A stretch of DNA of 64,000 nt, from the NCBI GenBank assembly GCA_051362555.1, contig CM120640.1, forward strand, positions 10,602,001 to 10,666,000, read 5' to 3'. Source of the stretch: Lingula anatina (Eukaryota; Animalia; Brachiopoda). Below, piece after piece: positions 8,165 to 60,319 of the stretch. How positions within the stretch are numbered: the first letter of the stretch is position 1; each line of letters opens with the position of its first letter. Below the pieces are notes generated by a model, which saw only the letters and a list, made by a program, of their open reading frames with translations, did not search any database and was not told where the DNA came from. Both the position numbers and the translations under genes were made by a program.

Positions 8165-8524
8165 GTTTAATGACTAGACTCGTATTCCTCAGAATGTGCC
8201 AGAAACTATTAAGCAGTGGTATTTTGTCACCAACAAGGTACGCAATCTTGCAGTGCTTACTAAATTAGCTTTTCAAAATAAATTATTTTAAAAATTAATT
8301 AAACAAGAAGCAGTCGTGAATAATAGCTCAAAGTTCGTCCGGTGGAAGTTTAACCTTTCATTACTGTACAAAATACCGGTACACCTTTACCTCCTCATAA
8401 TATTTCAATAATTCACCTTTATTTGCAGATAACACATTTATTTATCTAGCACCGACCTCGATAGCTACCCTTTATTGGAGAGCCTCCAGTTATCTAACAA
8501 CAGCATGACCAATATCACCGTGGG

Positions 8525-8571
<47 letters not shown>

Positions 8572-9652
8572 AAACAGACGCTCCTTTCGATGTTACAAAT
8601 ATTTTCAAATCCGCTCACCAGTGCTGGGATTCCGTATGGCGTGTTCAAAGACGCGATAACTCTTACCAGTTTGGAACTTAAATCGGATAGGTTGACTCGA
8701 ATTCCAAGTGGTTTGCCGGAAACCCTACAAAGCCTTGATCTTTCAAAGAATAATATTAACAGTCTCTATTCCAGCCACTTTGTACATGTAGGAATTTCAC
8801 GTCTTGAAAGGCTTGAGTTGTCCTCAAATGAAATATCAGCAATAGACACTGGGGCATTTTCTAATCTGATTAACCTGAAAACTTTGGGTCTCGCTGATAA
8901 GCATCTTACGCATTTAAGTGACGGAATGTTCGACGGACTCGCTAGCCTCGAGTTAATTAATTTGTATGGGATAAAATTATAATGATATCGGACAATGCCT
9001 TTGTCCCTTTGAGAAATCTTGCAACCATTGACATGGACTACAACAGTCTTGAAACTTTACAGTATGAGGTAAGTCAACGGTTCCCTAAAATTGCGATACG
9101 GTAATTGTGTTAGCGGTTCCATTTTAGAAAAAATGTGGGCTAGTTACAGAAACCCAACCTGCGCCCCAGTTTTAACCTTTTCTAAATCCCGGCATTTAAT
9201 TAATGATTAGGTCTTGTTTTTAGATTAACTCATATAAACCACACATATTAAATTGGATGGGCGACCGATAGAGACCCATTGTGTCAGATGTGCTATCTTG
9301 TAAAAAATTTAAACATTTACGGTGATTTACCTGTCATATTTTTATTCGGTTGCTATTACCCATCAAAAAGAGCAGTGGATTATTTTACTCCCATCGCTTT
9401 TCCCTTTGACAAAATGTTTAAGAAATCTATAATTTAATTGCTCAGGTTTACTACAATCCACCCTTCAAGAATTTGATTTCGCTGTCCATATCGTCTAACC
9501 CGTGGAACTGCGATTGCCGCCTCAGGTGGTTGCGCGCACTGGTTGATCTAAGACCCTATCTGATGCTGTCGGAATTGGTTAAATGTACCCAACCACCATA
9601 TTTGCAAAACTTGACATGGGATATCCTGTTTCCAGAAGATTTTGTTTGCTAA
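8165..9652 (+). pseudogene. Truncated LRR gene copy: promoter, exon 1 and most of exon 2 are deleted, and exon 3 is frameshifted
   Basis: High similarity to 1807..3245 including introns. A 4-bp insertion at the start of exon 3 gives ATC TAG, the T run is expanded from 6 to 43 nt (8526-8568), and there is a 1-bp deletion near 8970. Exon 4 (9446-9652) is still open. Confidence 0.88.
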
Positions 9653-14156: not shown

Positions 14157-17100
14157 AGGGAGGGGGGTGAGCACAAAGGAGGTTAGGCAGATAAGGGTTT
14201 TTCGTGTAAATCACGTTGCTGTGTATACAGCTGGTTATAGTATTAAGTGAGCTTCAGGAAAGTCAATATTCTGCCAAGCTGTGTTGCGGTATGTTAAACA
14301 ATAGAAATGGCACATTGAAATAAAAACGGTGTCAGATAAATGATCCTTAATTATGCTCATGCTCATCCAGCTGAAGCGATGTTAGGAGACCCTGCAAAAG
14401 TGAACTCCGTGGGTACAATAATGAATATAATGAAATTAAGTCCGTTTGCAGCTTGCAATATTCTGTTCTAGCTATCTGTCTGATCAGCGAGACAAGAATC
14501 AAAATTGCTGACGTGCGATCTATTTTAAGACATGCGTGGAACCTTCACTGGTTGGATCATGTTGGATGCTCATCGTTCACCATATGTGTCATTCTTATTC
14601 AAGACACTTGACCACAATTGAGATCAATTTTTGAAAAATCAGCAGGATAGGCTAAATGTCACCAGGCAAGTGGCAATTAGGAATGATAATGACATGGGTC
14701 TGTGGCGATACTGAGCCATCAAAGCACGCCCGGGAGCCCAGTCCCGTTGTAATTGAAAACGTTTCAGACTAACTTTGGGTTTGTTTTCACCACACTCTAT
14801 TATATCCCATAGTCACAATATGCAGGGAAAGTGGGATGCCATGAGAAAACGTAGCGTGACGTGGACGCTATATTGCAGGCGTAGTTCTTCATGTGTTCCA
14901 GGAGTTTGTCGAATCTAGGTTCTAGCAGAACCAATGTTGAATGCGACCTACTTCTACCCGCATAGAAATAAAAATAGAAAACAGGTCCCTAGGATATAAG
15001 CCCTGTTGCACCGTTTGTTTCGTATGATAAAATATTTAGTACAGACTATTTTGACATGCTTACAAGGATTACAATTTTGCAAGCGGAAAAGGCCTCTGAG
15101 ACTGAAAATATCAATTAGAGCGAGCGCCTAATTAGAAATGCCTAAGCCTTCTAGTGATAACTAACACTGCCAGTTTTTCGATAATTGTGAACTTTGTTTT
15201 TTTTTTAATCTTCTGCGAATTATTTTAGTATTGTTCAGTTTGTTTTTCTTGAATACTTCAGGTATTTCGAAATAAGGGTAACGAAGGTCCAGAAGGATAT
15301 GAAAGCCTCAGCGATCTAACAAATGCATCTAAATCGAACCAAAAAGTAGACCATTCCAAAACAGACGCTGACCGGAATTCTTCCGGCAATCATTCTGATG
15401 AGGACGCTGACGGTATGGAGGGAAAGACGGATGCTGACAAGGAAGAAGAAAGGCAGATCCCTAAAGTAGCGCCCCCTTCTCCTCGATTAGATCACCTTAA
15501 CGCAGAGGAAATTGGAAAATTAACAAACGTCTTTAAGAAGCTAGAAACTATGGAGCAAGAGGAAAAAGAATTTGTAAAGTTTGTATCTGATAAAAAGTCT
15601 TGATCTATTTAACATGTCTTGGTTAATTTAGTAATGGCTTACCATTTATACACATTTCTAGATACATGTTACATGGGGATCGTTTTTTTATTGAAATTGA
15701 TGTCTTCATTTAAGCCACAATTACATGGAACCTTGCTTTTGTAGAGCAACTTGATACAATTCTACGCTGTTATGAATTTCACCACTCACTCAAATATAAG
15801 GAATTTCTCAATATGACATCTGCATATTAGTAATATAAGAGTATTATCTCCTAATCACTGACTAATATATTAGATAAAGGATTCGAAGACACATATCTGA
15901 TTTTAAAACAAAAGGAACAATATGCAACATGTAACTGTTCAGTATATGTCCCAAACACATTACCTCAACTGCTTATAAAGTTGTAATATACTCATTCGTC
16001 AACAAACTGATTTTCAAAATGTCAGAAACAACATGCAACGGGTCACTGTATGTTCCAAACACATTACCTCGGCTTGTAAATGTCCGTTTATATAACTTGT
16101 ATATATAAGTCTACAGGTCACATAATGTAGATGTGTTTAGAATATTTTTTCTTATTCATAACGTTTAATCCGGATGTCGTTAAATACCGTTACGAAGGTA
16201 AAATTCTTGGAAACCTTAGGATGGTGAAATTCAAAGCATCCGATAATGTCAGGTTGGCTTCAGGTTACAGTTTTAATAATTTGCATTAGAACTGACACTG
16301 AAGATGCAACAAGAATCGGTAGGGTCTTTCTGATTATTTATTTATTTATTCATTTATTTAAGTTAAAGTTAAAGTTTGGAAGTTAAATACTTTTGAGGAA
16401 TCAATATTTTCCCGTTTTCATTTGTCAAATGTCTATATATCTATCTGATCACTGTCTGTCTGTGTCGTCACTGTCGCTATCGCCATCGCGGTCGCCGTCC
16501 GAAATATCAGTCCTTATATCTCCCTAACCATATTTTAGTTTTGCTTGACTCTTAGTGAGTAGCATTGTTTAGATAAAAAGTTTTTTTTTCAGCATGATTT
16601 GAATTTTTTTTAACGAAATTTATTGATTTTTTGTGTGTTTTCATTTTCACGTATTTTGGCGACGTTCGCCTTTTAAGTGTCAAGCCAATTTTTTTTTACT
16701 TTACAAGGACCCAGTACAAGGACCCAGTAGGTTTCCCAGGTAGTACTGTATGACGATTGGGTAGTTTTATGAAAGATTATAGAAATCTTTGTGTATTTTG
16801 ATGACGTTAGCCCCATAGGTGCCAAGCACTATTTTCGTTTGACTGAAAATTTGCTGAGTGAATTTGTTTGGTGAAAAAGGCAGGTTTCTTTCGAAAATCA
16901 TCACGATCGGGTTATTTATACAGGAGATATTGTTTACTGGAATGACACTGTTTATTTCTTTATTTTTAGGATTGTGAAATGCTGCTACAGTCACGTTTTG
17001 TCTGTAGGCTTTGTTATAAAATTTGGCATGGTTAGTTAATTTTCGCAAGAGCAATTGAACCATTTTGCAATGTTTTGCCATCCTGTTGTCCAATTTTTTA

Positions 17101-20100
17101 ACCCAATATATTGTGCGATGTCATGGGTTGTCCCAGAAGTCAAGGTTTGGGAGGCTAGTAAACATTGAAAAGTAGGGATTTTTATCAGATGTTTACTTAA
17201 ATGCGCCTATTTATGTTAAAATTGAGAACGAATTTTTATATACAGACACTGTCCCTGCATTTACAGTCCAAGTTTGGGTTTGGAATCGATGTCCAAATTT
17301 GTATACTGCGGTATCATTTTGTCACTGTTAAACGCTGTCTCTCCATATGTCAGCTTTAGCTGGCTTGCTTTACTTAAAGGTCTCATTTTTTCCCATAAGC
17401 TATCTTATATTCCCCTGTCTGTTTGCCATTTACATAATTACTTGTCTGCATCAATATCAGGATTTTATGATACGTGTTGGACCCACATGCAATTCAAGTA
17501 TAATGAAAATATACACTTCATCGATGTAGAAACTTCCAGTCAAGAAGATCTTTTTTATTACTGAACCAATTTTTCTTCATTTGGGGCAGCTGTAATCTGT
17601 TTCTCCAGCCCTAAGGATTCGTACTGTTGGCAGTTCTCGTTATTTCTGGTCAACATCCAAATTTTGCAGCCATCAACACCAATAGGAATGTGGAGGCCTT
17701 CATAAAACGTTGTTCTTTTATGTCAATATTAATTATTATCATTGGTGCTAGTTACGTCATTGCAACCTTCCTTTTTTAAACAGACAGTATGCTTATATCC
17801 ACAATACCAGTACCATAATCATTTAACGGCGATGTTTGATACATCCATGTTTATCATTACTTGTTTATCAAAATAACTCAAGCATATGATAGTCAGGTAA
17901 TTCTTTAATGTTTATGAAGTTATAACCCCCCCCCCCCCTTTTCCCAAAAGAGGCAAAGGGGTGTTATGATATTCAGTTTATAGGAAATGCATCATGCTGC
18001 ACCACTTCTCAAAAGATTTTTTTAGTAACGACAATGTTAGGCGTTCTCCCCTTCTCGATCTCATGTGATATCATTATCCAACGCAAATTATACATCTTTA
18101 CAAGTGATTGTATGCGAAGATGGTTTAGAATGAGGCTTCTACAGAAAGAGGTAGTATATGGAAGAATTACAGGTTTTTTAGACGTCTGTGCTTGATCTTG
18201 ATACGGTAAATCTTTGGTCTTTGAGTCAAAATTGTGACTGCATTGCTAGTCTTTGTACGTGTTTGCTGTACTGCCTTAGTCCGTTATTAAAAACATATCA
18301 GTAACACAATAAAGCGCTGTTGGTCGCTTATCAGTCTAGCAGCACTATATATTGTTGGTTGGTGCCTGCAGGAATATATCTCCTTAGGTTGGTTTAAATC
18401 ACCAATTCTTCCACATGAATAGAACAGAGTTTTTTTATAGATCTAATGCTTCGAAATGAAGTTCTAAAGTGGGTTATGTGCCATATATTTTCACACTAGA
18501 TTTTCGATTTTTTTAATATATCAGATATTAAAGTTTGCACGTTTATTTCTTTGGCTTTAGTACTAATATTAGTGGAAGTTATCTACCATCTATGGGGCTG
18601 TTCACACCAGTTCTAACCTAGACCATGTTGTTTCTTATTCTCACCACAGGATCCTAATTGGGTCATAAAATAAACCCAAATCGCCTATACTAATAAATGT
18701 CATATTGCAGAGTTTTTTATATTTCAGGAACCAGCAAGAAAGACGGGATTCAATGAATGACCAGGTGTCCCTTTTGGAACGACAGCAGGAGAAAAAGACA
18801 GTAAGGCTGTGTATGTTGTGTGACTCGGCGACCATATGGGACGGCGTAGGAAGGGCGTGTCACTTCTGTAAGAAGAGAGCCTGCTCGAAGTGCAGAACCT
18901 ACGTTGAACCACCACCAACTGGAAAGGCGTGGAACATTACCAAGGTACTCATTTCATTTCTTGTATTCTTTCATCTCAGATGTTTGTTGTTGTTTTATCC
19001 TTTAAGAAATAAACGAAAGATGCGTCTCAATTAAGTTTCACATACAAATATTTCAAATAAGAGAAAAACACCGTCTGAATGTCTTTCGGTGGCTAATTGT
19101 CAATTTGCAACAATAATTTTATCCAGTACCAGTCTGATAGTCACATATCTATCTAAAAAAACCCAAACAGATGATACCTTGGTGATACACGGATATTTGC
19201 ATATCAGTTGGAACAGACGGGACAGTGTAAATACGACAATGAAACTAAACATAGCAAAAGTACGAGTTTAAGCATTTTAGTCATATCATTGGTTTCCTAC
19301 AAGATATCTACTTGTCAGTTCGTATAAGTTTTATCGAAGGATTTCTCTTCGGTATATTTGTGTGCATCTGTGTGGTTGGTAAGACGGACGGACCTGGTGA
19401 GTGAAAGATGAGTGAGAAAATGTACAGATGGCATTCAAACGAAACTCTATTTATCTGAGTTTTGTGAAAAGATGCCTGCACAGTGTACGTGCAGCGCTGA
19501 ACTACACCGAAAAGCACTACGTTGAAGTACTAACACGATATGCCAATGTTGGTGTGGATTCCAGTAATACGATCTTTCCTATCAACATTATGGGTTTTCC
19601 CGGAAAAAGGCATTTAACTCACCAATGTCCAGGGTTTAAGCCTGAGGTTTAGAGATGTGACTTAAAAGGTTCGCGTGGCGTGCTGTATAGGCATCTGTCC
19701 AGGGCTTGGTATTGTGATGATAAGCTGTATCTATAATGAAGTTATTCTGTTATATTATGAAGGTCAACTGGATTTTAACACTATAGATTTATAATTTCAA
19801 GTTCCAAATGAAACGATCTGCACTGATTAAAAAATAAAGTAACCACTGCTGTTTTTGTTTCTTTATTTATATGTGAGAGAGAGAGAGAGAGAGAGAGCAG
19901 CAGTGCCTGAAGGTTCAATCTCATACGCGACCTATAGAAACCAATTTCAGCAATATCTGCTAATATCCGTCCCAGTTGTTATTAAATTGCAGTCAGTAGT
20001 GACTATTTATTGTAATGTTAACACCATTTGGGCCAAAAGTGAAAATATGAAGAGATACGGAATATTTAATAGGAGCATCCTTTGTTCTCTAATCGTATAT

Positions 20101-20536
20101 GCCTTAATATATTTTTTATGAAAACTCCAATCTCGAATATATTGAGAATAGGTATATGACTGTCGATTTTAAGCACGAGTGTGAGTATTGGACTTACTTG
20201 ATAAAACGTTGGGTTCGAACAATGATATGTAGATGAGTCAACAGTATAATTTGGCCCAGCGCAAAACTTCTGCACATTTGAAATGAAAAGCTCTATAAAT
20301 GTCAAAAAGTACTCAAATGGTAATGCGTTTCAACTTTCCTAGTATTTTAAGGGTTACTGGGTATGTAATGTCTGCTACCTAAACCTCGACGTTCTCCAGA
20401 AGACTGGAAAATGGTGTCAAACAGACTCTGACGAAGGGGAGGAGGTGCCCGTCAGAACGTCAGCAGACTTCTTTAAAAAAGTTGCCACTGACTGGGGACC
20501 AGATGATGAATTTGTAAGTTTATTAGTGCATCATTT

Positions 20537-20611
<75 letters not shown>

Positions 20612-21307
20612 TGGTTTTAGCACATTTTACATACATGTACAAGCAATATATTTATATTCTGATCACTGTGTTTGTCCGTGCTGTCGCATCCGGCACTTCT
20701 GTTTTTCACCCTTAAAATAAGCACAATCAGATTATCTTTACCAAATGTACAGTTTTTAGCATGTATTTTGTGCACTCTCGACAGTTATTGATTTTTTTTC
20801 TGTGTAAATATTGTTACAATGTTTTTCCCTTGTTTCGCGTCTGCATATTTGTCAGCTTTGCTGCCATGTTTACAAAACGCAATGACCCAACATCATATAC
20901 GTTGTAATAATGATTAATTAAAGTCGACAGTGAACGTAAAAGGGCCTTTACATAAATTATACAGCTAGTAGTACGAATACACATTCCAGTATCAAAACAG
21001 AATGTTTAGATTGGTCTCGTCATCGAAATTGCAAAACATACTTGTTTTCGCTGATGATTCTGCGCTCTCGTTCTCTTTACAATAATCTTATTTTTTCGGT
21101 CGCCCGTACTTTGTTTAATAGCTTATACTAGGGTTCTCTGATTCTTGGCAGTTCAGATTCTCTAAATTTCGGTCACCCTGACACTTTAATTTGCAGTAAA
21201 TTTTGCGGTTGAAATTCATCTTTTTTCCTTAGGATGGCTGCAAGGCCATAGACCTGGATGAAGAGTATACCACTTCCAGCAGAAAGAGCACAGCAAAAAG
21301 AAAGTAG
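13899..21307 (+). CDS. Rab-effector protein with only a Rab-binding (Slp-homology/FYVE-type Zn finger) domain, Noc2/rabphilin N-terminus-like, 277 aa; exons 13899-13961, 15262-15578, 18728-18944, 20352-20513, 21233-21307
   Basis: SHD1-like helix LDHLNAEEIGKLTNVFKKLETMEQEEKEFVK; four Cys pairs CMLC, CHFC, CSKC, WVCNVC; SHD2-like KTGKW. Splice phases are consistent (0,2,0,0). No C2 domains before the stop. Confidence 0.8.
14017..14152. repeat. Compound (GT)n/(GA)n microsatellite in intron 1
   Basis: Directly visible; it produces the spurious HTHT/CVCV/ERER ORFs. Confidence 0.95.
20620..20872 (+). mobile_element. Short degenerate HINE-like element related to those at 46.5 and 60.3 kb
   Basis: Ends in GTCTGCATATTTGTCAGCTTTGCTGCCATGTTT, similar to GTCTGTACATTTGACAGCTTTGCTGCCTTGTT at 49812 and 62951. 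The 5' part has ctgatcactgtgtttgtccg, also seen near 16446. Confidence 0.5.
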
Positions 21308-22299
21308 AGGTCTAACCAACATTTAATCCAGCTTGGGTGTTATCTTGTCCTGATTCATGATTCAGGAATTATTAGATTATTAATACTCAACATAGATTCA
21401 AAACGGTTGCATGGGCATGTGTACCATGACTTATGATAAGTTGTAGCCAACGGCAAACATTTAACATCAAGTTATACGTGTTTGGTGTTGATGGTTTCTG
21501 CTGTTCTCGAGCTGTTCTCAATAATAGCAATGTTGAATTTCTTCATTTGAAAGATTGATGAATATTTAACTTAATTTAATGAATATTTAATTTAATGATC
21601 TGTTAAAGAGATCCTTTGACCCCCTGCATCCATGATTGTTCAATAAACAGTATTGCTACAGAGTATTCCGATCACCTGCTTCCTAGTTGTTATAGATTTG
21701 GCAATATAGATATTTGTTTTTTTCTTGAAACTATGATGTATATCTTGAAATATAAGATAAACTTTACATAGTGTCTGACTTTCGGTAAGGGTTGAGTTCT
21801 AGGGTGGAATGGAAAGGCCAGTCGTGGGAAGAGACGTTTTATCGGTAAATATATATTAAGCATTCATTTTCAACTTTTGCTTTCGAGCAATAGATATTTG
21901 AAGAGTTTCAGCCGCCATCTACTGTTGGAGGACGAAGGCATAGGTCCTACTTGTAGAACAGTATGATATTGATTTGTCATGACAGCACTGAGTTGTAATA
22001 AATTCATTTACGGTGACTATAGATAAATGATGAATATCGACGACGATTGTTTTTATGGGATATTTTATTTACTTAACCAATCAACACAAAATGTAGCTCA
22101 TGGTTGTTAGAGTTGGAAAGGATGCAGGCGTCTGTTTATTTCTTTGTATGTATTCTACCGTAATTTTAACAAGACAAATAATTTTCCATTTTAGCAATTG
22201 ATCACGTTTCTTTTTGACGATTAATGTCACAAAATACGTAATAACGAAAATAATAATCATAATGATAATATTTCAGTCTGTAAGATACATTTAGGCCTA

Positions 22300-24960
22300 T
22301 TAGTTACACCAGGAGCCTAGTTCTTCATTAAAACGCGCGCAGAATGCATTCACAGCATTTTCAGCAGCCTGTATATCGTCCACACTACCATGGATAATCT
22401 CATAATTATCTGCAAACTCTTCGGTCTCCTTTTGTAACTCTTGCTTTGTAATTAGAGTCTTAAAAATCTCAAACCTCCTTTCGTGGTCGCCGCCATCTTT
22501 GTAGTACTCCTTGACCCTTGAGCTGATAGGTGTTGTGGGGTCATTTTGAACGCGGCTCCCCATGATGTAGCCATCGATGTCGCCGAGTATCTCGGCGTCT
22601 GTGGCCATGCTGTACGGACCGTCAAGGGTGAACTTCTCTCCGTTCCACGTGCCGCTAGGCCCTATCAATGGCTTGGTGGAATCTGCAAGAAGATATTTTG
22701 GTCTTTACTCGAAGGGAGCATCTTTATATGGTACGGAAGGGATGATCGTTTCTATATTTTGTTAATGTAATTTTCGCGTGGTTCTTTTCTTTCTTTATTG
22801 CTTTATTTTTATTCATTTCTTTTTTTATAAGGTAGATGTTAGCTACATCCTCATACGCGACCGGATTAATTCAGACAAAATAAATGCAAAGCAAATTAGG
22901 GTAAGGTTTTACACGGGATTAAAGTGTCAGCCTTATAAAATTACATTAAAGTCTGTCAAACTTCTTGTCGCTGATTTTTCAGTGAGGATCATCAACTTCT
23001 TAATAAGCGAAAACACCAACTAAAAGACTAAGAATGCTCTGTGTTTTGTAAAGAAATCATCATGAAATCATGCGATCATTACATATATAGGCCTATGCGT
23101 TATATAGCCAGTAGTGTTATCTGCATGTACCTAGTTGATTTTTATGACCTGACTGCCCAAGATCTCCACTTATTGTGGTGGCGGCGAGGTTGTCCATCCC
23201 AGAAATCGAATGCCGATCATATCCGGCAGCAATACCAGTTATGACATGGCCTGGAGAAAAAGTAAAAAAATACTGAGTTACATGTAATATACACAAAGGG
23301 ACACGCGTGCACACACACACACACACACACACACACAACAAATGCCATGGGTGATTTTTTTACCAACAACTCTTGATTAGAAACCTGGCAATACTTAAAA
23401 AAACTTAAATCAAACTGCATTCCCCCCCCCCCCCCCCAAAGAAAACATTTTGAAATTCTAAAAATATAGGTAGAAAGGGTTTGCAATATTTTGCTATCGA
23501 CCAAGAAGTCCATGTTCTTGACAGAAACCCAGTTATTGATTTCATCTTACGCTTCGATGTTATGTTTTCAGTATGATCAAATGTGATTAGGCACAGAAAT
23601 GTAATTTCACACGATAAAGGTTCTCACCTAATGCAATTGCGTCGTCACCAATCTTAATCACCCCCTGCTCCTCTAAGCGACCATCTCCATCTGTGTCCTT
23701 TATCGAATGAAGCATTGTCTGCCTTAGATAGTCGAATGCCTCCTGGTTAGCCGGGTCATTTGGAAATGGTGAGACGTCTCTGCCAACAAACGGGACTTTG
23801 TCATTTACTAGGTACATGGTTTTCCAAAAAGGTGTGTCATAGCGGGATACCAGCATCCGAAGCTTGTGGATCAAATCTTCTGGTGGCACGTCAGGGAAGA
23901 GTTTTTCCACGGCATCTAATACGTCTTTGAACTTATCAAACGTGAAGTTCTTTGGGTCTATCCAGAACAAATAAAGCATATATGTTATTGACATGAAAAG
24001 GGGGGGTTTATGAAGATGGACCACAAAAGATTAATGAATAAATTTTGAAGAATAGGATAAATCTTTCCTAAGCTTGATTGCGGGCCAGTTTATTCATTTT
24101 CAAGCCACTATACATGCGCGTTTGGGACAACAGCCAGGTGACATGTTTAGAAATATGAAAACAGATGTAGGACCGCGTTGCGTCTGAAACTCTGGCCAAC
24201 ATAAAGTTTCGAATGAAGTTCGTAATAAGTTAGTGGCAGTTTGAATGATCTCGCAAGACAAAAGTTACGAGAATCCTCAAAGAAAAAGGAATGAAACTCA
24301 CTGTTGGGATTGATGGTTGTATTTGTCGCGGGTGTTGTGGATACTGGGGTGGTCTCTTTTGGAGTCGTACTGCTTGGTGTTGTTGTTGCCGGCTGAGGGG
24401 TGGTCTCTTTCGAAAATAACAGTTTTGAAAAGATTTATTAATAAGAAGCAAAAGATGCTACAGTAAACTGTTATGAGAAGCATTTATGTTGTTATTTAAG
24501 GAAAAGCTTCAATAAATAATTAGTTTAATATTCCAAATTAATTAATATTATTGAGAGTCATTACGTTGATACCGACAGTATATTTATCAACTCAGACCAT
24601 TATCTTATGAAACATAAAGTATTGATCTACAGAATAGGTCTTTATCATTAATCAAGTCATCAATTTTTAAGTTAAAAAATCAACTCGGTTTCTGCCCACA
24701 TGAACAAAAGTAACTCCCTCACCTGGCAATCTGCAGAGTCCTATACAGGTTGATGAACAGTGGAATCTATAAACACACATACGGCACGCAGCGTGGCTGC
24801 ACGAACGATCACACTTGTACTGATATCCACAATACCCACAATACGGACATACGTGTCGACCACCTTTGGCCAAATCGCTGGCTATCTTTGCCAAATTCTG
24901 AGCACTCGCAAGCGTTAACGCCGCGACAAGTAAGACACACATCAATAACACTATCTTCAT
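22300..24960 (-). CDS. Secreted protein: signal peptide + 10-Cys peptide + Thr/Pro-rich linker + PGLYRP2 N-terminal-like domain (no amidase), 391 aa; exons 24960-24723, 24406-24302, 23957-23628, 23250-23131, 22682-22300
   Basis: All four introns are GT..AG phase 1 and join in frame. Motifs EQGVIKIGDDAIALGHVITGIAAG, DNLAATTISGDLGQS, IGPSGTW..FTL and ATDAEILGDIDGYIMG..EYY follow the order I recall for the PGLYRP2 N-terminal region. Confidence 0.8.
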
Positions 24961-37083: not shown

Positions 37084-39891
37084 ATGCTGCTGCTTACTAT
37101 CTTACTCCTGTTTGTACACCTCGTCTTGTCGATGGAGCAGTCAAGACCTATAGTTTACGTAAGTACACTTTCTCCTCCATTTGAAATCAACTATTAATTT
37201 GTTTTTAGTACACAAATTAACAAAATACGTCATAGAAAAAACATCTAGGAGATCTAGGATTGTTGGCAATCTGACAATTAACACGTTTAAACTATTTTCA
37301 ATAATGACTTGGTCTTTTTCTCGGGACAGGGTGTCTTATTTAACTTAGAATTTATTTCACTTTATTTATTTCAGCCAAAAAGATAATTGACGTATTATTG
37401 CATGTAGCATTTGAAATAAAGGGTACATTGTAGCAATCAAAGTACAAATAATAATAATAAATAAATAAATTATTGATAAAAAATATTGACATGTTAATCA
37501 TATCATTATGCCTAATCAGCATGTTATTTTCTTTCTTTCTTTTTCATCAACGAAAGATGCGCAAAGTTATCGCAGGAAACGTACATCTAATCGTATAAAA
37601 CGTTATTCTAAAACCTCAAACCCGATTTTCAACTGGTTAGCAACATCTGTATAGATTGCATTCTGAGTGCACGTAATACTGGCTTTTTTATTACACACAA
37701 AATAAGAAATAGGTCTTGGGCGTCATGTTCAATTTTAACTGTAAAATTAAATTTTTCCATCAGATAAATTTGTAGGCGGTATTTAAAGGCAGTTTGTTTC
37801 AAATCTTTTTTTCAATCTAAATGTTCTAATTTTCAGCTATCAAGTTCTTATAACTGTCTTATCTGATTTTAAACAGGAACGACGCACCGTGTCGTCCGGG
37901 GGTACAGATACTAGTTGGGAACCCGTCTACACGGGCGGAGAGCGGGTATACACCAGTCGCACCTCATCAAGTACTAGTGGGGCTCAACCAGTCTACAGGG
38001 GAGGAGACGGCCAAGTCTACACAAGGCGCACGATACAAACTTTGCCCGGAAGCGTGCGAGTCTACCCTGGCGAACGAGTGTATACGCGGCGTACGGTTCA
38101 AACTGTTCCAGTAGGATCGCAGCCGGTGTATACCACTGGCGAGAGAGTCTACACTGGCGGAACCAGAACCGTGTACCAGCCGTACTATACGGCCTCCGGA
38201 ACAAGCAGCGGGAGTAGTAGTAGTGGGAGCAGTGGCGTCTGTCCCGACACTGGTGTAAGACAGTACATCAATGGTTTATCTTGCCGTGAAGCAATTTCCA
38301 GAGACAAGTGGCTGTGCTACGACTATGCCACCAGGAGCAAGGAGTGCTGCGAAGCCTGCTTGAGCTATAAGATCTCCGATGATCCGTGTAAGTCGTAGTT
38401 TGAAAGCAATGCTCAAAATTCGCGGTTCGGAACTCATGTTTTCTCAGGGGCAAATCAAGAGGAAATAACTTTAATTGCAATTTGCAGGCGTTTTAAATGA
38501 CAACTTATGAAAGCTCGATCACGCTCGGCTGTCACCACCCGGTTGACGAATCTAAAAACAAAATAAAACAGCTTTATAATAGTGCTTTCTTAGTCTAAAA
38601 TAATAATGCAGTTTATAAGCCCACCATAATGAAAAAAATTTATTTTTTTTTACTGTAACATGCATGAAGCGATCTCGTGAGTACCTACAACGTCAATTTT
38701 TGCTAGTGTAGATGCACGAGAAGTCACTTTTATCTGAAATTATTTCAGCATGTATGTACGGAGATCGTTCTGGAGATTGTGTTCGAAGCCTTCGGCCTTC
38801 CCAGTGCTACGACCCATTTAACTCCAAACTATGTTGTCAGACCTGCCCACAGTTGAAATATAGAAATGCTGAACCAGGTGCGTAAAAATTTTTGACATTT
38901 AAACAACCAGGGACAAAATATAAAGTTTTTGTTGTTTTAACATTGTGCGTCCCCATTTGAATGTTGAAAAAATGTCTTTGCAATCAAGGTTGCGAGTATG
39001 GGGACAAGGACCCAGCACGATGCCCCGTAATCCAAGCCAGCAGCTGCTATTCCCCTAACACTGCCAGCATCTGCTGCAATACTTGTGCCAGATTCAAGCA
39101 GCAGTACAACCAGCCAGGTAGGTTCTTAGCTTTAAAAAAAAACGTTAAAATTGAAAACAGAATAATTTTGCATCTCTGCTTCCTAGAAAGTAAAATCTCA
39201 CATCTTTTGGTCCTGACAGGCTACTGAAATGACAGTCTTTGGAAATGAAATAGCAAATGTAAGCTGTCATCCTAAATACACTGCATTTAAACTTAAATTG
39301 CAGGCCTTGTTCAGGTACAATAATAAAGATAATCCGGATTTAACAATTCATAAAAAATGTGGAAATAAATCATAAGAAAAAAGTACTGTACTATACAATG
39401 GTATAGAATTAAAATGCCTTTTTTTAAAATAAAGGTTGTGAGTATGGAGACAAGGACCCCGTACAGTGCCCTATTATTCAAGCCAGCAACTGCTATTCCC
39501 CTAACACTGCCAACATCTGCTGCAAAACCTGTGCTAGACTCAAGCAGCAGTACAACCAGCCAGGTAAACAGTTGTCAGAGCCATTGTGTGATGAACTCTT
39601 TGATGATATATCTAACAGAAAGTTGAATTTTTATCGCTTTTAACAGAACTGTTTTATGTTTAACAATAGTGGTCAACTTCTGTTTAAAAAAAATTCCTTG
39701 TCTGCAAAGAACACTAACAGCCAGTCCAATTCATTTTAGGATGCGAGTATGGGGATAAGCCAGCCCAGTTCTATGCCCCTGGGTATGGATACCCCCTGGA
39801 CTGCCGTGGATACATCAGTGTCTTTGGTGTTGATCGCTGTAAAGAGAATCGCACCAGAAATGTCTGCTGTTTCACTTGTGCCGGCCATTAG
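37084..39891 (+). CDS. Secreted protein with a VY(T)-repeat region, a Ser/Gly spacer and five PLAC-like 6-Cys modules, 374 aa; exons 37084-37158, 37877-38387, 38749-38877, 38989-39117, 39435-39563, 39740-39891
   Basis: Signal peptide MLLLTILLLFVHLVLS and repeats such as PVYTGGERVYT. Three consecutive 129-nt phase 1-1 exons encode C(M/E)YGD..C..CY..CC.TC. All junctions are in frame. Confidence 0.85.
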
Positions 39892-41885: not shown

Positions 41886-43061
41886 GGCTTCGTTCACATG
41901 CAATGTCTATTTTCTAAATTCTATTTTCTATTTGCGGTATGTCTTATGATCACGGTCTGTGGCCTGAATATCCCGCGGCGTAATTACTGGCAGCGTGAGC
42001 CACTTACTATAAGTTACTATAAGTAACTGGCTCGCGCTGCCAGTAATTACGCGGCGGGATATTCAGGGCACAGACCGTGATCATAAGATAGCGCAAATAG
42101 AAAATAGAAATTAGAAAATAGACATTGCATGTGAACGAATATGGGCGGCGGTTTATACAAAAATGCAAAACACGATTAGTCATCATCGTTATCAGATCAG
42201 AAGGCAAAATACGACTAGTAGTCGTCAAAACGCAACTAGTCATCATCAAAACGCAACTAGTCATCATCAAAACGCAACTAGTCATCATCAAAACGCAACT
42301 TGTCATCAAAACGCGATTTGACGCCAGATGGCGCCCATTGTACGAAAATCTAGGCCAAGTCACATGATCCACAGTGATCAAAATGGCGGACGTTATTGAA
42401 GCAGCATTATCATATTCCTCGCTCGAACTCGAGAATTATCTCGAGTTCGAGATATTATTATATATATAATATCATTATTAGATTGTACGCGTAGAGATAA
42501 TTCTCGAAATAATAAATAATTAAATAATTTATTAAATAATTTGGACATGTTATAAATTAAAAAAAAAACAAAAACACACACTTGTGAAGCACTGCTTTAT
42601 TGTTGTACTCATTTCACAAGTTCCAGATATTATTATATATATAATATCATTATTAGATTGTACGCGTAGAGATAATTCTCGAGTTCGAGCGAGGAATATG
42701 ATAATGCTGCTTCAATAACGTCCGCCATTTTGATCACTGTGGATCATGTGACTTGGCCTAGATTTTCGTACAATGGGCGCCATCTGGCGTCAAATCGCGT
42801 TTTGATGATGACTAGTTGCGTTTTGATGATGACTAGTTGCGTTTTGATGATGACAAGTTGCGTTTTGATGATGACTAGTTGCGTTTTGATGACTAGTTGC
42901 GTTTTGATGACTAGTTGCGTTTTGACGACTACTAGTCGTATTTTGCCTTCTGATCTGATAACGACGACGACAAATCGTGTTTTCATTTCGACTGATCTGA
43001 TAACGATGACGACTAATCGTGTTTTGCATTTTTGTATAAACCGCCGCCCATAAACGAAGCC
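41886..43061. mobile_element. PIF/Harbinger-like non-autonomous foldback element made of two long palindromes
   Basis: Termini GGCTTCGTT..AACGAAGCC are flanked by TAA on both sides. Hairpin 1 is 41889-42005 vs 42023-42139, hairpin 2 is ~42140-42442 vs ~42668-43052, and the arms carry 18-21-bp tandem units (ACTAGTCATCATCAAAACGCA). Confidence 0.8.
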
Positions 43062-49966: not shown

Positions 49967-52900
49967 CTAGTTGTCATCAAGAAACATTTCTCCTAAAACT
50001 GACAATCTGGCATGGAAAGGTCTAGCTGGACATGTGAGTAATTCCTGTTTATGTCTTTTAGATTTTGAAAAATAATTTGCACAAGTTATATTTAACTCTG
50101 TTTTAATTTCTTGAAAAAGACCCTGCACAATATTTTTCAAAGCAGAGTTGAACTGTTCTTGGTTATCACTTGTTTTAATAGCTGTATCACCCTTGGCATT
50201 AACAGCACCATTTGGCGGTAAAAGTTGAGGTTGACTAGAAGTTTTTTGAGGTTGCTGAATTGTCACAGTGCTGTCACTCTCTCCCTTTTTTTGAGAAGTG
50301 GCAACAGAAGATTCCGAGTCTCCTGAAGTAGATTTTGTCTTTGTAAGATCTAATTTATTTTTCTCAGGGTAAGTGCTGGCACTCTGTGTGTCAATTTTTT
50401 CAGTATTAGATGTTGATTCAAATTGTGTATTACTGTTCCTGTCATTTGTCAATGAGTTGGCATTTTCCAATACTGCACTGTGTGCCTGCTGAGCATGGGA
50501 TGTAATACTATTTTCAGCTTTGATATCTGTGTTGCCTGGTGGTATCTCTGTGCCGGTATTCATTTCATGTAATAGTGAATCCTGTGAACTTGAAGCAGTT
50601 ATCTCACTCCCTAGAATCTCCTCGGGTTTTTTAGGACCATTCATTTTTTCCAATATTTTCTTAAATGCTTCAACAGTCTGCTGCATCAAATCAGATTCTT
50701 TTTGCTGTAAGCTTTTAAAATTACCAACATGTTTCTCTTGTGAAGAGGGCATTTGTTCTGATGGTCGTTTAATGTCTTCTGCAAGTGGATCTTCTCTGTA
50801 CTTATTTTTGCCTTGTTCCACAGTTGTCTTTAATCTAAGCATGTCTGGTTCATTATCAACTAAATCAAGTAAACTCAACAAATTAACATTGTCTTGCATA
50901 TCTTGTACCAGCATATCATCTTGGTGTTTTTCTGCACTACAACAATAGAGGGCAGCAGTGTCCACAGGATGGGCCTCTGTGTTAAAAACATATCCACCAG
51001 CATCAATGATGCACTCTCCACTTGGCGTCTGAATGACTGTGCCATGGCCAGCAGTGTTGTGGATAAAGTTTTCAGGGTCAAAAAGAAGGTAAAGATACTT
51101 GGTTGTTTCTGCTAAGAAGAAGGATTCCATTCTATTCTCCAACATGTGAGTTTTAACATTTTGAACCTGTAATAAATATGTCCAGCTGTGTAATTTTCAT
51201 TGTTAGGTGAATCGAAAGTTGCTGAAAGAAACCTGTTACATTTTCTCCCAAAATAAAAATATGGGTTCTTAATACAGTAAACCAGCTTTGAAGTCATTAA
51301 CACATCTTTAAAACATGGCTGCCAAAAATTCTAAGGAGATAACTGATGGTTTAATATCTGTCAGGAACCTGCACTACAATTAACCAGCTTACTAGTAACA
51401 GAAAATTGTACCTACTGTAGCATAGCCACATCTTGTTTTTGTGCTGTGTTCTATGGATTCTAGTATGTCTACACCAACTTCCAGCAGGTATGGATCCTTT
51501 GTTGCTCTGTACAGGTACATTGTGCTCTCTATCAATTCTGAAATAATTCAGGTTTTATAAATTAAACAAATGAATGTTTATCTGCAGATTTTACTTTTAC
51601 ATGTACACAATATGATATTAAATGAAATGTTAATTTTCAGTTGTATATGGTACTGAATATGAAAATATTGTACTATGTGGTCTTTTGTGAGGTTTCATAT
51701 TTTTATCCTCTAAATCAAGGACAAATTAAAGCCTTGTTTCTAATATCTGTTGTTCATTGTGCAATGACAACTGATTGTTACTGTTATTTTCCAACCTGGT
51801 CTAAGCGGGTACCCCTCTCTTCCTTGGTGAACCTCACTTTTAGCAATATTGTAGAATTCAGGAGTAAAGCCATGTTGTTTCCAAACTTGATGGTAATTAT
51901 GGAGAGTTTTCATGGCTTTGTCAATGTCACCAATTAGGCTCTGAAAAATATAACATGATATATATAAAAATTTTTCTTTTTTTCTTCAAGTGCTAAATAA
52001 CATAAATGAAGGCCTTTGGGTCACCGATGGTCACCACAAACATTACATTTATCAAAAACAATTCTGAAAAAGCCTCTTCGAAAATCCATGCAAAAATTCT
52101 TAATATTTGAACACACATAACTAAATTAAATAAGTAGCAGCAAAAATGATATAATCTTTTATAGGTGAATTTTTCTAAATGTACCTGCAATCCTGGCCAG
52201 AAGGCCTCCAGAGACTGAAAGACAGGAAGAGTGACTTGACCTTTAACCATGTGGACCCACATATACCAATCATCCTGTTTCAGGTGGCTTTCTATAGATT
52301 GTTTAAAACCTGCAAACAGGTCAGATATTGCAATCAATACAAATCAACACATCAATACAAAAAGACACACTAAAATTCAACAGTAGAAACAAAAGATAGA
52401 CTCAATAATCTGAAAATGTATAAATCTGAGTTTGGCTATTGTATGAAGAAGCTTTTTATTGTAAATTTGGGTGCAGAATACAGATGATTTTTTTTGGCAT
52501 GTGTATGTGCTTGTGTGTGTGTGTGTGTGGGGGGGGGGGGGGTACAATACACCATAACAAAAAACCTATAAATCAACTTCATAAAACTCACTGGCAAACA
52601 TCTCCATGAGCTCAGGTTTCTGTAGTAGGATGGCTCCTTTAACCAAGTACTCAAAGTAGGAGTCCACTCCAGCTCCAATACCTGAATCCAGTGCTGTCCA
52701 TTGACCAGTCTGCACATTGATGTGGTTACCAACCTGATAATAACAGCTTCAAGGTTAAGCCACCATACCAACATGTGACACCATTATAAAACATATATTT
52801 GTCTATTTGGAATAAATACAGACTACAATTTCAGGTCTTTTTTCTATGCTAACATGCATTGTACCATTTCTTATTACAGGTAGAATTTCTAATTATATAA

Positions 52901-55900
52901 TTTTCATGCAGGGAAGACAAATAAGTTTTAATACTTCACAATAATCAAGGAACAATTACCTTAAAAAAGGATAACTTCCTAAAAGATAATCAAGATATGC
53001 TTCTAAACCTATTAAACCTACCAATCCAATTTCAGACCTGTAGTTCCACAAAGATGTCAGAGCTCTCATTGCTGTTTGTTCAAATATAGGATCCCCTGTT
53101 AGTTTAGAGAGGGTCCCAAATTCAACAATAAATGTCGCAACTCCAGCAGTGCAAGTGACTGCAGTCTCCCCTTCTGGAACGCCATGCCTGAGGTTTACTG
53201 TTCCATAGGGCATACCAGTACTTGTATTGAAGGCTTAGAATGAATGAAAAAGCAAGGAAACAATTAAGTGACATAGCAGCTCATAATCACATAATTGGGA
53301 ACACAGTATTTTGGTCTTTTTCTTTCAACATGACTATGTATTTTTTCCTCCAAATGGCTGTTAAGCATGGCAAGTTGATAATTCAAAGGGTCAATCAAGT
53401 CAAAAGATAAGGATACCACACTGCTTAGTGTGACATACTTTACAATAATCTAAAAGAAATGTTACTCTATATTATTAGATTGCACAGATAGAAACCCTAG
53501 TACCAGGGAGTAATCTTCTAGCAACATCTTCAGCAAGTCTAAGAAGAGGTCCTGAGCATGGCCAACCAGGTTCTAGTACCATATCTGCTCTCTTTGTTAA
53601 CAAGTGTGCTGACAGCAGACCTCCAACAACTGAAGAGACAAATAGGCAAAAGGAATAATAAACATAAAAACCTTCAACAATCATGGGAACTAATCTTGTT
53701 TTCTATGTTTACTTTGTATTAATTAAAAACTTCATTCAAGTTAAATTATATTTCTAGAAGCATAATCCTATCTCACTGATACTGATCTCTATAAATCATA
53801 GTCCTTTTGAAAGTTAAGGCTGGTCATGGAGCACCATGTTAACTGTCAGGCATTCAATTATGCTTTTTTTCTGACTGATGTGATCCATAATATCAAAGGG
53901 ATATCAGCTGATTAGACCACACCTCTTATGTTTGTCTCAAACACGGATGCATTGATATCAATATCAAAGTCTACTTCATCTGCCAACTTGTAAGCTACTC
54001 GTCTAAATTCAGTCATGTTTCCCATTATAGCTAGGGTATCCAGGGCATCAATCAATGTCAAGGAAAAACTGAAAATGTAAAATTCATGCAACAATCTTAT
54101 GTGCTTGGCATTGAGACCATATTTGTAAAATAAAACAAAATCTTTAAAGCAATATTTCTTAATATACTTATGCAGAACAGTAGGGATTGTTTGAAAACTT
54201 TTATGACTTTAGTAAAAACAAATTCAGATAAATTGCTTTACACAGCTACTGGTGCTGGGTCCTACAAATGAAATTATTTCATATTGGTAAAGTTTATATA
54301 GTACATAAATATTACTAATAATGCCCCACTTTGTAACACATTTTCTATTATAAACAGCAGGTTTGTTATATACATAAACAATTATCAAATCATACCTTCC
54401 CCATGTATCATGTCCATCACATGTTATTGGTCGAAGTTCGTCATAAGGATAGGCATATTGCATATATCCATCATAGGCATGGTGAAACATCCTAACAACT
54501 TTGTCCCTAAAATAATATGAAGAAGTACAAATGCTTAGTAGACAATAAAGGAACAGTTGGTGCAGAGACACAACACAAAAATAAAAAAATTTGACAAAAT
54601 TGCCTATTGGGTATCAACAAATATTTTGGTTCTCATTTGTTTCTCATTTATATTATTTATAAATCTTCCACATATTGTAAGTCATACAAAGATAACAGAG
54701 TACAGCATTTCTGAGAAAAAGACTGAAAAAGATGATGCCAGGCTGATATCTGATTTTGAAATGTAACATCTGTTACGGTAATATGCCAAACAATTCGACC
54801 AAGATTAATTAATTAATTTCATGGAAATGTCAGTTTGGTCGAATTGATTAAAATACAGCAAATGGAAACCTTTGATGTCGTCGGATTGTTAGGGGCATCT
54901 GCCAAAACGTCCATCTTTCCGGAAGTATTGCATTTTACCGGAAGTGTTACGCAAGATAAGCCGCAATTTTCGCCTAACACGTGTTTCAGGCTTGTTTTAT
55001 CCTCCTTTTAAAATCGTATTTTGCTGTGTACAATATGTGCTAACATTACTTAACATTAAAAAAGACGACAATTATAATTTCTAATTATATATTTCCCTCA
55101 CCTACGATCATTTTCATGATGCGCTTCACGAGTGGGACGAGTATTTCCCCAGAGACGGGTGTTGTAAACAAAGGCCGGTCACTTATATTTGAAACCGGTA
55201 GCTTTAGTAGACTTAAACTAGTTATGTGATCTACGTACGCCTTATTTGAATTTTAATATGGCAACTGAAATCAACCGAATTGAAATTTTTTACCAGTCTG
55301 AGATCAGTTGTTTTCAACCCGCAAGGCTTGCTCAGCGTCGAGGCGTAGACGTACTTCCGAAGAAAATTCAATCACCCGTATCAAAGAATACCAATTGGTA
55401 CTCAAACGGAATTCAGTGTAACTTCAAATTACTTATAAGTATTTTATTTAAAAAGCAAGTCATATTAAAACATATTGAGAAAAGGCAAAATACGGAGCCT
55501 ACCTGTGCCGATAGACATACAGTAGGCCTATCTTGCTGGCACTCTTCCGATTTTCTTACTTATATACTCTCGCTGTGCACAAACCACGGTGCATATTGAA
55601 AACCCCACTGATACAACCCGAACGTAAAATGAGCATTTAATTGCCATAATTTTCACAAAACAAGTGCATTTATAATTTGACGCGAAAATCATTGAGCACA
55701 TGCAGAAATGAGACTGGTCTTATCTGGTCTGGTCTAGCATAGCGCAAACCACATGTTAATGAAGACGGTCCCATTTTGGGGGAGGGGGGTCACAGGAATG
55801 GAGTTCTTCGTGGATTACGCTAAATATCATCAACATTTCATGCATCTGGGGAAATAAAAAGTGACTCACAGGTAACGTAAATATCCAGTGGAACTCTCTA

Positions 55901-59519: not shown

Positions 59520-60319
59520 ATGGGATTGTAGGAGACTTATAAACTTGGTATCACTGTACAGAGAAATTACATACAGGACTCTGATTTTTCATCTTAATGA
59601 GACAGAAGATTCTGCAACAATTTGCATAAGTGTTCTAAGTAAGCAAAAAAATTAATAAAACTAAAAAAAAAGGAGAATCTTCAATAAGGAAATGTTCGTG
59701 TTGTTGTTGTTCTTTTCTTTGTGAAAATTGCACCTTTATGTAACTAAGGCATTCAAAGATATGTTTGGAGTCATTTTTCTGCCAGAAAAGCCAACCAAAT
59801 ACCACCATATAGTATAAGTTTCAAATAGCATAACTTGCCTAAAGACATCTTTCATATCACTTGAAAAATTGATTTTTCTGCTTGCTGTATATAAACAGGG
59901 CAGATAAGTAGGACAAATGAGGCTAAATTAAAGACCCTCATTGCATCTAGAGGTTTAATGTGTAATGGGGCCAAGAGGGATGGTTCAAATCTGTTAAAGC
60001 TGCAAGCCTATGCACAGTGAACTTCGATTTTTGTCAGTGGGGGGAGAAAAATAATTCATTTCGCCAAGGTTATTTATCTTTTGGTGCTATAAAATAACAA
60101 GAAACTGTTCTGACCTCAAAATTTATTTAAATGATGACTAATCTGCAATATTGCATTTTAAATATAAGTACAGGAATGAGATTTTTCTATTGACTGATTT
60201 CAGACTCTTTGGGAGCCAAAAACATCATTGGCCCCCTGGACTCCACACCATATTTCCTGACATTTTCTAAATGGCACTTTAATCTCTGTTGGTAGAAATT
60301 CTTAAAGATGTAACTTATT

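Follow-up and report, generated by a model that had tools for sequence, protein, structure and literature searches.

An intact predicted TelC-type pocket in a stand-alone Met-TelC domain behind an orphan ten-cysteine module in Lingula anatina

Only recently has a bacterial toxin that attacks lipid II been recognised as the origin of the front domain of PGLYRP2, for which loss of enzymatic activity and a receptor role are predicted. Within the window, by which we mean the whole 64-kb stretch of Lingula anatina DNA analysed here, lies a gene whose product carries a relative of this domain with no amidase attached, placed behind a cysteine-rich module and a Thr/Pro/Ser stalk. What kind of protein is this, and could its last domain have kept the chemistry of the toxin? 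The gene comprises five exons on the minus strand and encodes a 391-aa product followed by a stop; all four introns are bounded by GT..AG, and each is in phase 1. The features of the gene are the following.

24960-24723, minus strand: exon 1, encoding the predicted signal peptide, the pro-segment and the 10-Cys module
24901-24960, minus strand: predicted signal peptide, residues 1-20 (MK, a hydrophobic run and ASA)
24856-24900, minus strand: amphipathic pro-segment, residues 21-35, with a KGGR end (hydrophobic moment 0.57-0.71, net charge +2)
24727-24855, minus strand: 10-Cys module, residues 36-78, with the spacing C-2-C-2-C-5-C-3-C-4-C-2-C-5-C-3-C-3-C
24406-24302, minus strand: exon 2, coding for the Thr/Pro/Ser stalk (residues 80-114), with RNA reads across either joint
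23957-23628, minus strand: exon 3, first portion of the Met-TelC domain, residues 115-224; joints in RNA reads
23250-23131, minus strand: exon 4, which supplies the pocket helices and in them H226 (23246-23248), D254 (23162-23164) and Q257 (23153-23155)
22682-22300, minus strand: coding part of exon 5, with E295 (22591-22593), D299 (22579-22581), D301 (22573-22575), R334 (22474-22476), C379, C390 and the stop
21987-22299, minus strand: 3' UTR, its lower end approximate, as the stranded depth of RNA runs X5 and X6 stops in the bin from 21987
22140 and 22069, minus strand: poly(A)-type hexamers in the 3' UTR, seen in the sequence

Transcription of this gene was followed in eight of nine coded RNA runs (X1, X2 and X4-X9). 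All four splice joints are present in X5, X6, X7, X8 and X9, that is, in five of the eight runs, with support in X6 of, for example, 39, 51, 71 and 58 reads; X4 contains three of the four, while X1 and X2, in which the gene is hardly covered, contain none. Exon 1 is thereby joined through to exons 3-5, as the first-pass annotation of this DNA had supposed, each joint being demonstrated singly by short reads and not end-to-end on one molecule. Reads of X7-X9 are ~95% similar to the window and carry two other letters at the joint of intron 2, which is an allele difference. The stranded runs place the transcript on the minus strand. Expression level varies, with 165, 74 and 686 placed reads, from 8-10 million records each, in three runs of one study; X4 reads were counted over a longer stretch than those of the other runs. 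The database protein P0001 (Lingula anatina LOC106152892) is likewise 391 aa long and differs from the gene model at 2 positions, and tblastn detected no second copy of the gene within the window.

The transcript ends without reaching an amidase. RNA depth extends beyond the stop codon into the 3' UTR, no splice joint out of exon 5 is listed in the eight RNA runs, and tblastn with two amidase-bearing relatives as queries matched no amidase sequence in the window at E ≤ 1. The downstream neighbour is convergent, with an acceptor at 21233 and opposite-strand reads. The first-pass annotation had reported the lack of an amidase and named splicing to a downstream amidase exon as the alternative; the lack is borne out, and the alternative was looked for and not found. 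The C-terminal Amidase_2 domain of a PGLYRP2 orthologue is thus missing from this protein, whose stop lies in exon 5 and is followed by UTR.

The convergent neighbour (15253-21323, plus strand; last exon from 21233, transcribed) encodes a Rab-effector-like protein with a FYVE_2/RIM-type zinc finger that scores below the Pfam cut-off. Elsewhere in the window are a pair of leucine-rich-repeat coding stretches that resemble each other (1112-2661, which begins in a signal-like manner, and 8509-8979, plus strand), and an open frame of Thr/Val/Tyr/Gly/Arg repeats that ends in a six-Cys module recalling ShK-type domains (37787-38395, plus strand), for which Pfam returned no match at E ≤ 1. The remainder includes an inverted duplication with near-identical translations and short tandem repeats inside (42010-42435, minus strand, and 42676-43050, plus strand), an EDEM-like Glycosyl hydrolase 47 gene with a long last exon (49970-54613, minus strand), and long tandem-repeat open frames that are probably non-coding repeat DNA (60283-62535, plus strand).

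The last domain (residues 116-391, 276 aa) is acidic and globular. P0001 and its closest relatives carry the precomputed annotation Pfam PF27189 YkzU (atlas score 0.92), the name of an uncharacterised family whose description draws largely on bacterial clusters; the literature search returned nothing relevant on YkzU. The homology to the PGLYRP2 N-terminal region that had been noted in the first-pass annotation was confirmed by HHalign, which matched a 55-sequence alignment of the domain to a 7-sequence vertebrate alignment at 99.9% probability (E 1.2e-33, 258 columns), and the domain is 28% identical over 136 aa to P0161, a protein of the PGLYRP2/PGRP6 type. A profile search recovered 494 proteins at E ≤ 0.001, and the best 150 of the 494 include vertebrate PGLYRP2/PGRP6, an insect protein, a Nematostella vWA protein and a bacterial DUF4157 protein.

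This domain family already has a name. It is Met-TelC, one of the families within the Lipocone superfamily (Burroughs, Nicastro and Aravind 2025, PMC12419801), described there as acquired from bacteria before the cnidarian split; inactivity is predicted for the majority of its members, the animal site is called reconfigured, and a role as receptor for polyisoprenoid-pyrophosphate intermediates is proposed. Two marks are given for the family (PMC12419801): an Asp that follows the active-site acid of H4 at a distance of six residues, and an Arg conserved within the C-terminal extension. We infer E295 to be the canonical H4 position. D301 lies six residues after it, and this position is Asp in 153 of 154 domains (segments of at least 170 aa aligned from 157 proteins); R334 is conserved in 143 of the 154. 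Predicted secretion and solubility are further points of likeness: the protein appears to combine a TelC-like helical fold with a cap, a soluble domain of low hydrophobicity (GRAVY -0.52, with no membrane-length segment after the signal) and the secretion signal of an animal protein.

The structural similarity to TelC itself is that of a fold, extending over nearly the whole domain. The model of the domain has a pLDDT of 94.6, and a fold search with it retrieved Streptococcus intermedius TelC (5UKH; Whitney 2017, PMC5555719) at Z 8.7 (rmsd 4.6, 199 aligned; runner-up 3.1), the sole chain at Z ≥ 5 among 48,161 PDB chains, although Z values below about 13 can be common among helical proteins; the whole-protein model gave Z 8.6, and the search reports its alignments as residue ranges. 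Atlas models matched a PGRP2 cluster at TM 0.69 and an arthropod cluster at TM 0.72. Foldseek against the PDB returned nothing at E ≤ 0.001 with either model, placing TelC fourth at E 1.9 in one search and missing it in the other, and sequence profiles against the PDB gave nothing credible and did not reach 5UKH; the link to TelC is therefore remote. TelC, which binds and depends on calcium, is a phosphatase of lipid II that takes C55-PP as a further substrate and works extracellularly (PMC5555719). Both proteins possess a His and acid-rich pocket motifs, and in both the TelC-type domain is C-terminal, forming the toxin tip in TelC. TelC uses LXG/type VII secretion and has an immunity protein. 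Its site is Asp-rich, whereas the Lingula domain, 13% identical to TelC, has E-x3-D-x-D; activity is demonstrated for TelC and predicted for the Lingula domain.

The residues expected to line this pocket are in place. The H2 His, H3 acid and H4 acid are represented by H226, D254 and E295, accompanied by Q257, D299 and D301, and none of the 18 RNA variants examined changes any of them. To compare relatives, a tree was built from 142 segments of at least 200 aa; it is unrooted and was computed in quick mode, most of its rows are unnamed, and the group labels are our own, with few rows per group named. Lingula P0001, the unnamed P0002 and P0005, and the Lineus and Mya proteins form one clade (SH-aLRT 99), and vertebrate (100), arthropod-type (91) and cnidarian-type (94) rows form separate ones, the deep animal forks having no settled order in such a tree. 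A branch with SH-aLRT 96 separates 77 bacterial-side rows, taken as prokaryotic from their partner domains, from all named animal rows. All six pocket residues are kept in 8/8 members of the Lingula/Lineus/Mya clade and 74/77 bacterial-side rows, as against 3/10 cnidarian-type, 0/14 arthropod-type and 0/8 vertebrate rows; in the vertebrate PGLYRP2-type domains the equivalents of H226, Q257, E295 and D299 are all lost in 8/8. The 25 rows outside this tally are unnamed animal-side rows, eight of which, by eye, keep all six residues, mostly as first domains of tandem proteins. The cnidarian-type row XP_031550155.1 of the Met-TelC table shows the same intact motifs (PMC12419801), so that, with the untallied rows, the intact site is not unique to the Lingula/Lineus/Mya clade.

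Tandem two-domain TelC-like proteins (P0012-P0016, P0019, P0021 and P0160) are encoded on long contigs. In several of them all six pocket residues are retained by the first domain, whereas most are gone from the second, an arrangement that could represent a pair of enzyme and pseudo-enzyme.

At the H4 position the Lingula domain likely has Glu in place of the ancestral Asp. Glu occupies this position in 77/77 bacterial-side domains as well, and we therefore rejected the Asp-to-Glu change as a mark of animal inactivation. To our knowledge, no member of this nearest bacterial group has been assayed. Two motifs common in the group have 0 matches in supplement 1 of PMC12419801, which suggests that the group is absent from the table in that supplement; E-x-x-G-D is also found in rows of the Prok-TelC table (PMC12419801). 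Other Lipocones depend on the His and Glu/Asp residues, in that changing the His or Glu costs YfiM and its plant counterpart their activity, and some proteins that conserve the site were inactive on the substrate tried (bioRxiv 10.64898/2026.09.16.752124).

Partner domains among the 157 proteins include LysM (4), DUF4280 (4), eCIS_core (2), OmpA (2), amidase (2), vWA (1) and a pesticin-like domain (1). When 185,579 prokaryote genomes were scanned by pattern, 8 of 245 candidate loci were confirmed, scattered over several phyla. One of these (L001:3-2684, on a contig labelled Woesearchaeota) encodes an eCIS_core-LysM-TelC-like-M23 peptidase protein; in two Chamaesiphon loci (L007:2881-5180 and L008:2713-4803) the TelC-like gene precedes an LRR gene whose start is signal-like, possibly an immunity partner. 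The prokaryotic partner domains would fit wall-directed effectors.

Members of the Lingula/Lineus/Mya clade invariably have the domain in last place, and their N-terminal modules vary, from the Cys module and stalk of Lingula to a MAM domain in Mya P0158, with an RxxR site and a Gly-rich linker on the N-terminal side in five Lineus, Mya and unnamed proteins. The Met-TelC partners in the network data of PMC12419801 are mostly on the other side, consisting only of C-terminal vWA, Ig and amidase domains plus one N-terminal amidase; a domain-last order with an N-terminal module of the kind seen here is absent from those data, and the main text of that paper makes no mention of Lingula, brachiopods, lophotrochozoa or molluscs. 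Within a recently described family, the Lingula protein stands out for its intact site, its stand-alone C-terminal position and its orphan Cys module.

The first-pass annotation had taken the uniform intron phase as evidence of exon shuffling. The phases are as claimed, and the argument from them carries little weight: of the four introns, two interrupt the domain itself and look old, as fragments of four relatives start or end their matches at or near those sites, which leaves introns 1 and 2 alone in support of module shuffling. Origin of the gene from PGLYRP2 by loss of the amidase was considered and rejected, given the separate clade of the Lingula protein and the chordate distribution of the amidase fusion (PMC12419801).

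Residues 1-20, predicted to form the signal peptide, contain the one 19-mer in the protein that is strongly hydrophobic (KD 2.4, against at most 1.3 in any later window). The pro-segment (24856-24900, minus strand) aligns loosely with an L-x-R-I-A...G-L-H stretch that its relatives from Lineus and Mya have ahead of their RxxR site, and may possibly be the remnant of a leader common to them. The cysteines of the following module are residues 38, 41, 44, 50, 54, 59, 62, 68, 72 and 76; it has a net charge of +4, 3 His and 6 aromatics. Two copies of C-x2-C-x5-C-x3-C make up an internal 14-residue repeat, the score of which was matched by 10/2000 shuffles overall and by 920/20000 with Cys fixed, so the repeat signal is mostly one of spacing. 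The stalk (residues 79-115) is 68% T/P/S with 17 Thr and Ser, likely O-glycosylated. Residues 21-78 carry a net charge of +6, and the domain one of -19. The AlphaFold pLDDT is below 50 over residues 19-116.

No relatives of the 10-Cys module were found by Pfam, atlas, PDB sequence or homologue searches, which covered a limited length range and cluster size. Pfam at E ≤ 1 assigned it to no peptide family and gave a weak DUF3090 match on the leader only; the atlas search returned no usable feature match and structure matches that were low only; the homologue search with exon 1 (proteins of 42-137 aa) gave one candidate and none scoring; and the PDB sequence search gave RING-finger matches at E ≥ 0.5 only. 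CS-alpha-beta defensins and mytilins pair a CxxxC helix with a CxC strand. The module has no CxC, and the defensin/mytilin-like identity suggested in the first-pass annotation gained no support from these searches. Its outline of the protein otherwise survives: the signal peptide, the KGGR end, the quoted Cys string, the T/P/S stalk and a last domain of ~275 aa are all present.

Taken together, a model for the Lingula protein emerges, to which we assign a probability of about 0.45: a secreted, antibacterial, metal-dependent lipid-pyrophosphate hydrolase that acts on undecaprenyl-pyrophosphate carriers such as lipid II and is equipped with a cationic Cys tether. Beyond residue conservation, each step of this model is our inference. 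The protein would be secreted by way of its predicted N-terminal signal; the cationic 10-Cys module, on a flexible stalk, would tether the acidic domain to the bacterial surface, in a role parallel to that of LysM in the bacterial relatives; and the His/acid metal site of the domain would cut undecaprenyl-pyrophosphate carriers, the loss of which would starve wall synthesis. Access would pose a problem for such an enzyme, since lipid II lies beneath the wall or outer membrane. The earlier assignment of the protein as a secreted immune effector is likely right.

The domain could instead bind, but not cleave, lipid II or a related carrier, acting as a soluble pattern receptor or opsonin with the Cys module as its effector or signalling end. 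This is what has been proposed for Met-TelC generally (PMC12419801); the likely change to Glu at H4 points the same way, and metal-binding residues may persist for binding alone. Set against it are the bacterial-side domains, many in effector architectures, which all carry the same Glu (77/77), as do the E-x-x-G-D rows of the Prok-TelC table (PMC12419801), and the His, which lineages called inactive have lost and which the Lingula/Lineus/Mya clade keeps in 8/8; on balance we consider pure binding unlikely. If the domain is an active enzyme, as we prefer, its substrate could still come from the host or the diet and not from bacteria, for instance phospholipid head groups or sugars on dolichol pyrophosphate. 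Lipocone substrates do vary, with PTDSS1/2 using phospholipids (PMC12419801) and YfiM and its plant relative acting on dolichol-linked sugars in vitro (bioRxiv 10.64898/2026.09.16.752124), and expression in the coded RNA runs does not tie the gene to infection. The patchy occurrence, tandem Mya and Lineus paralogues and swapped N-termini are better suited to conflict genes than to housekeeping, however, and the protein sequence has no visible ER-retention signal or membrane anchor, which makes this substrate range distinctly improbable.

The remaining possibility concerns the other part of the protein, in that the gene could encode a precursor from which the 10-Cys module is released as an antimicrobial or metal-binding peptide, with the domain as a second product; this comes near to the view taken in the first-pass annotation. 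Exon 1 alone does specify a signal, a short pro-piece and a cationic Cys peptide, an arrangement reminiscent of a small-peptide gene fused to the rest, and five relatives have their RxxR site ahead of the linker. Yet the Lingula protein itself has no KR/RR or RxxR cleavage site within residues 20-120, and so none on either side of the module; no known peptide family matches it; and no transcript for a free peptide was seen, retention of intron 1 being nearly nil (depth near 0-1.5 in the RNA runs). We give this precursor reading little credence, and retain the tethered hydrolase as the preferred one.

The first-pass annotation had put the gene forward as a way to study the PGLYRP2-type region alone. 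The domain does stand alone, but it is a poor proxy for the present human domain, because it keeps pocket residues that PGLYRP2 has lost; it may be a better model of the likely active ancestor of that domain. As a small, soluble, natural version with an intact pocket, the Lingula protein is suited to testing whether the toxin chemistry was kept in animals and what the pocket binds. Our literature search found no work on this protein or on TelC activity in animals, papers on brachiopod immunity and on PGLYRP2 and lipid II having been judged by title. A broader proposal, tentative and in our estimate well short of even odds, is that brachiopods, ribbon worms and clams secrete an enzyme antibiotic of the TelC type which is catalytically active, is targeted by swappable N-terminal modules and represents in living form what the PGLYRP2 front domain descended from, and that the Lingula 10-Cys module represents a new family of bacterial-surface binders. 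The module may be a new targeting peptide. If active, the protein would be an enzyme by which an animal attacks a major antibiotic target and, within the literature found, the first from any animal for which destruction of lipid II or undecaprenyl pyrophosphate is demonstrated.
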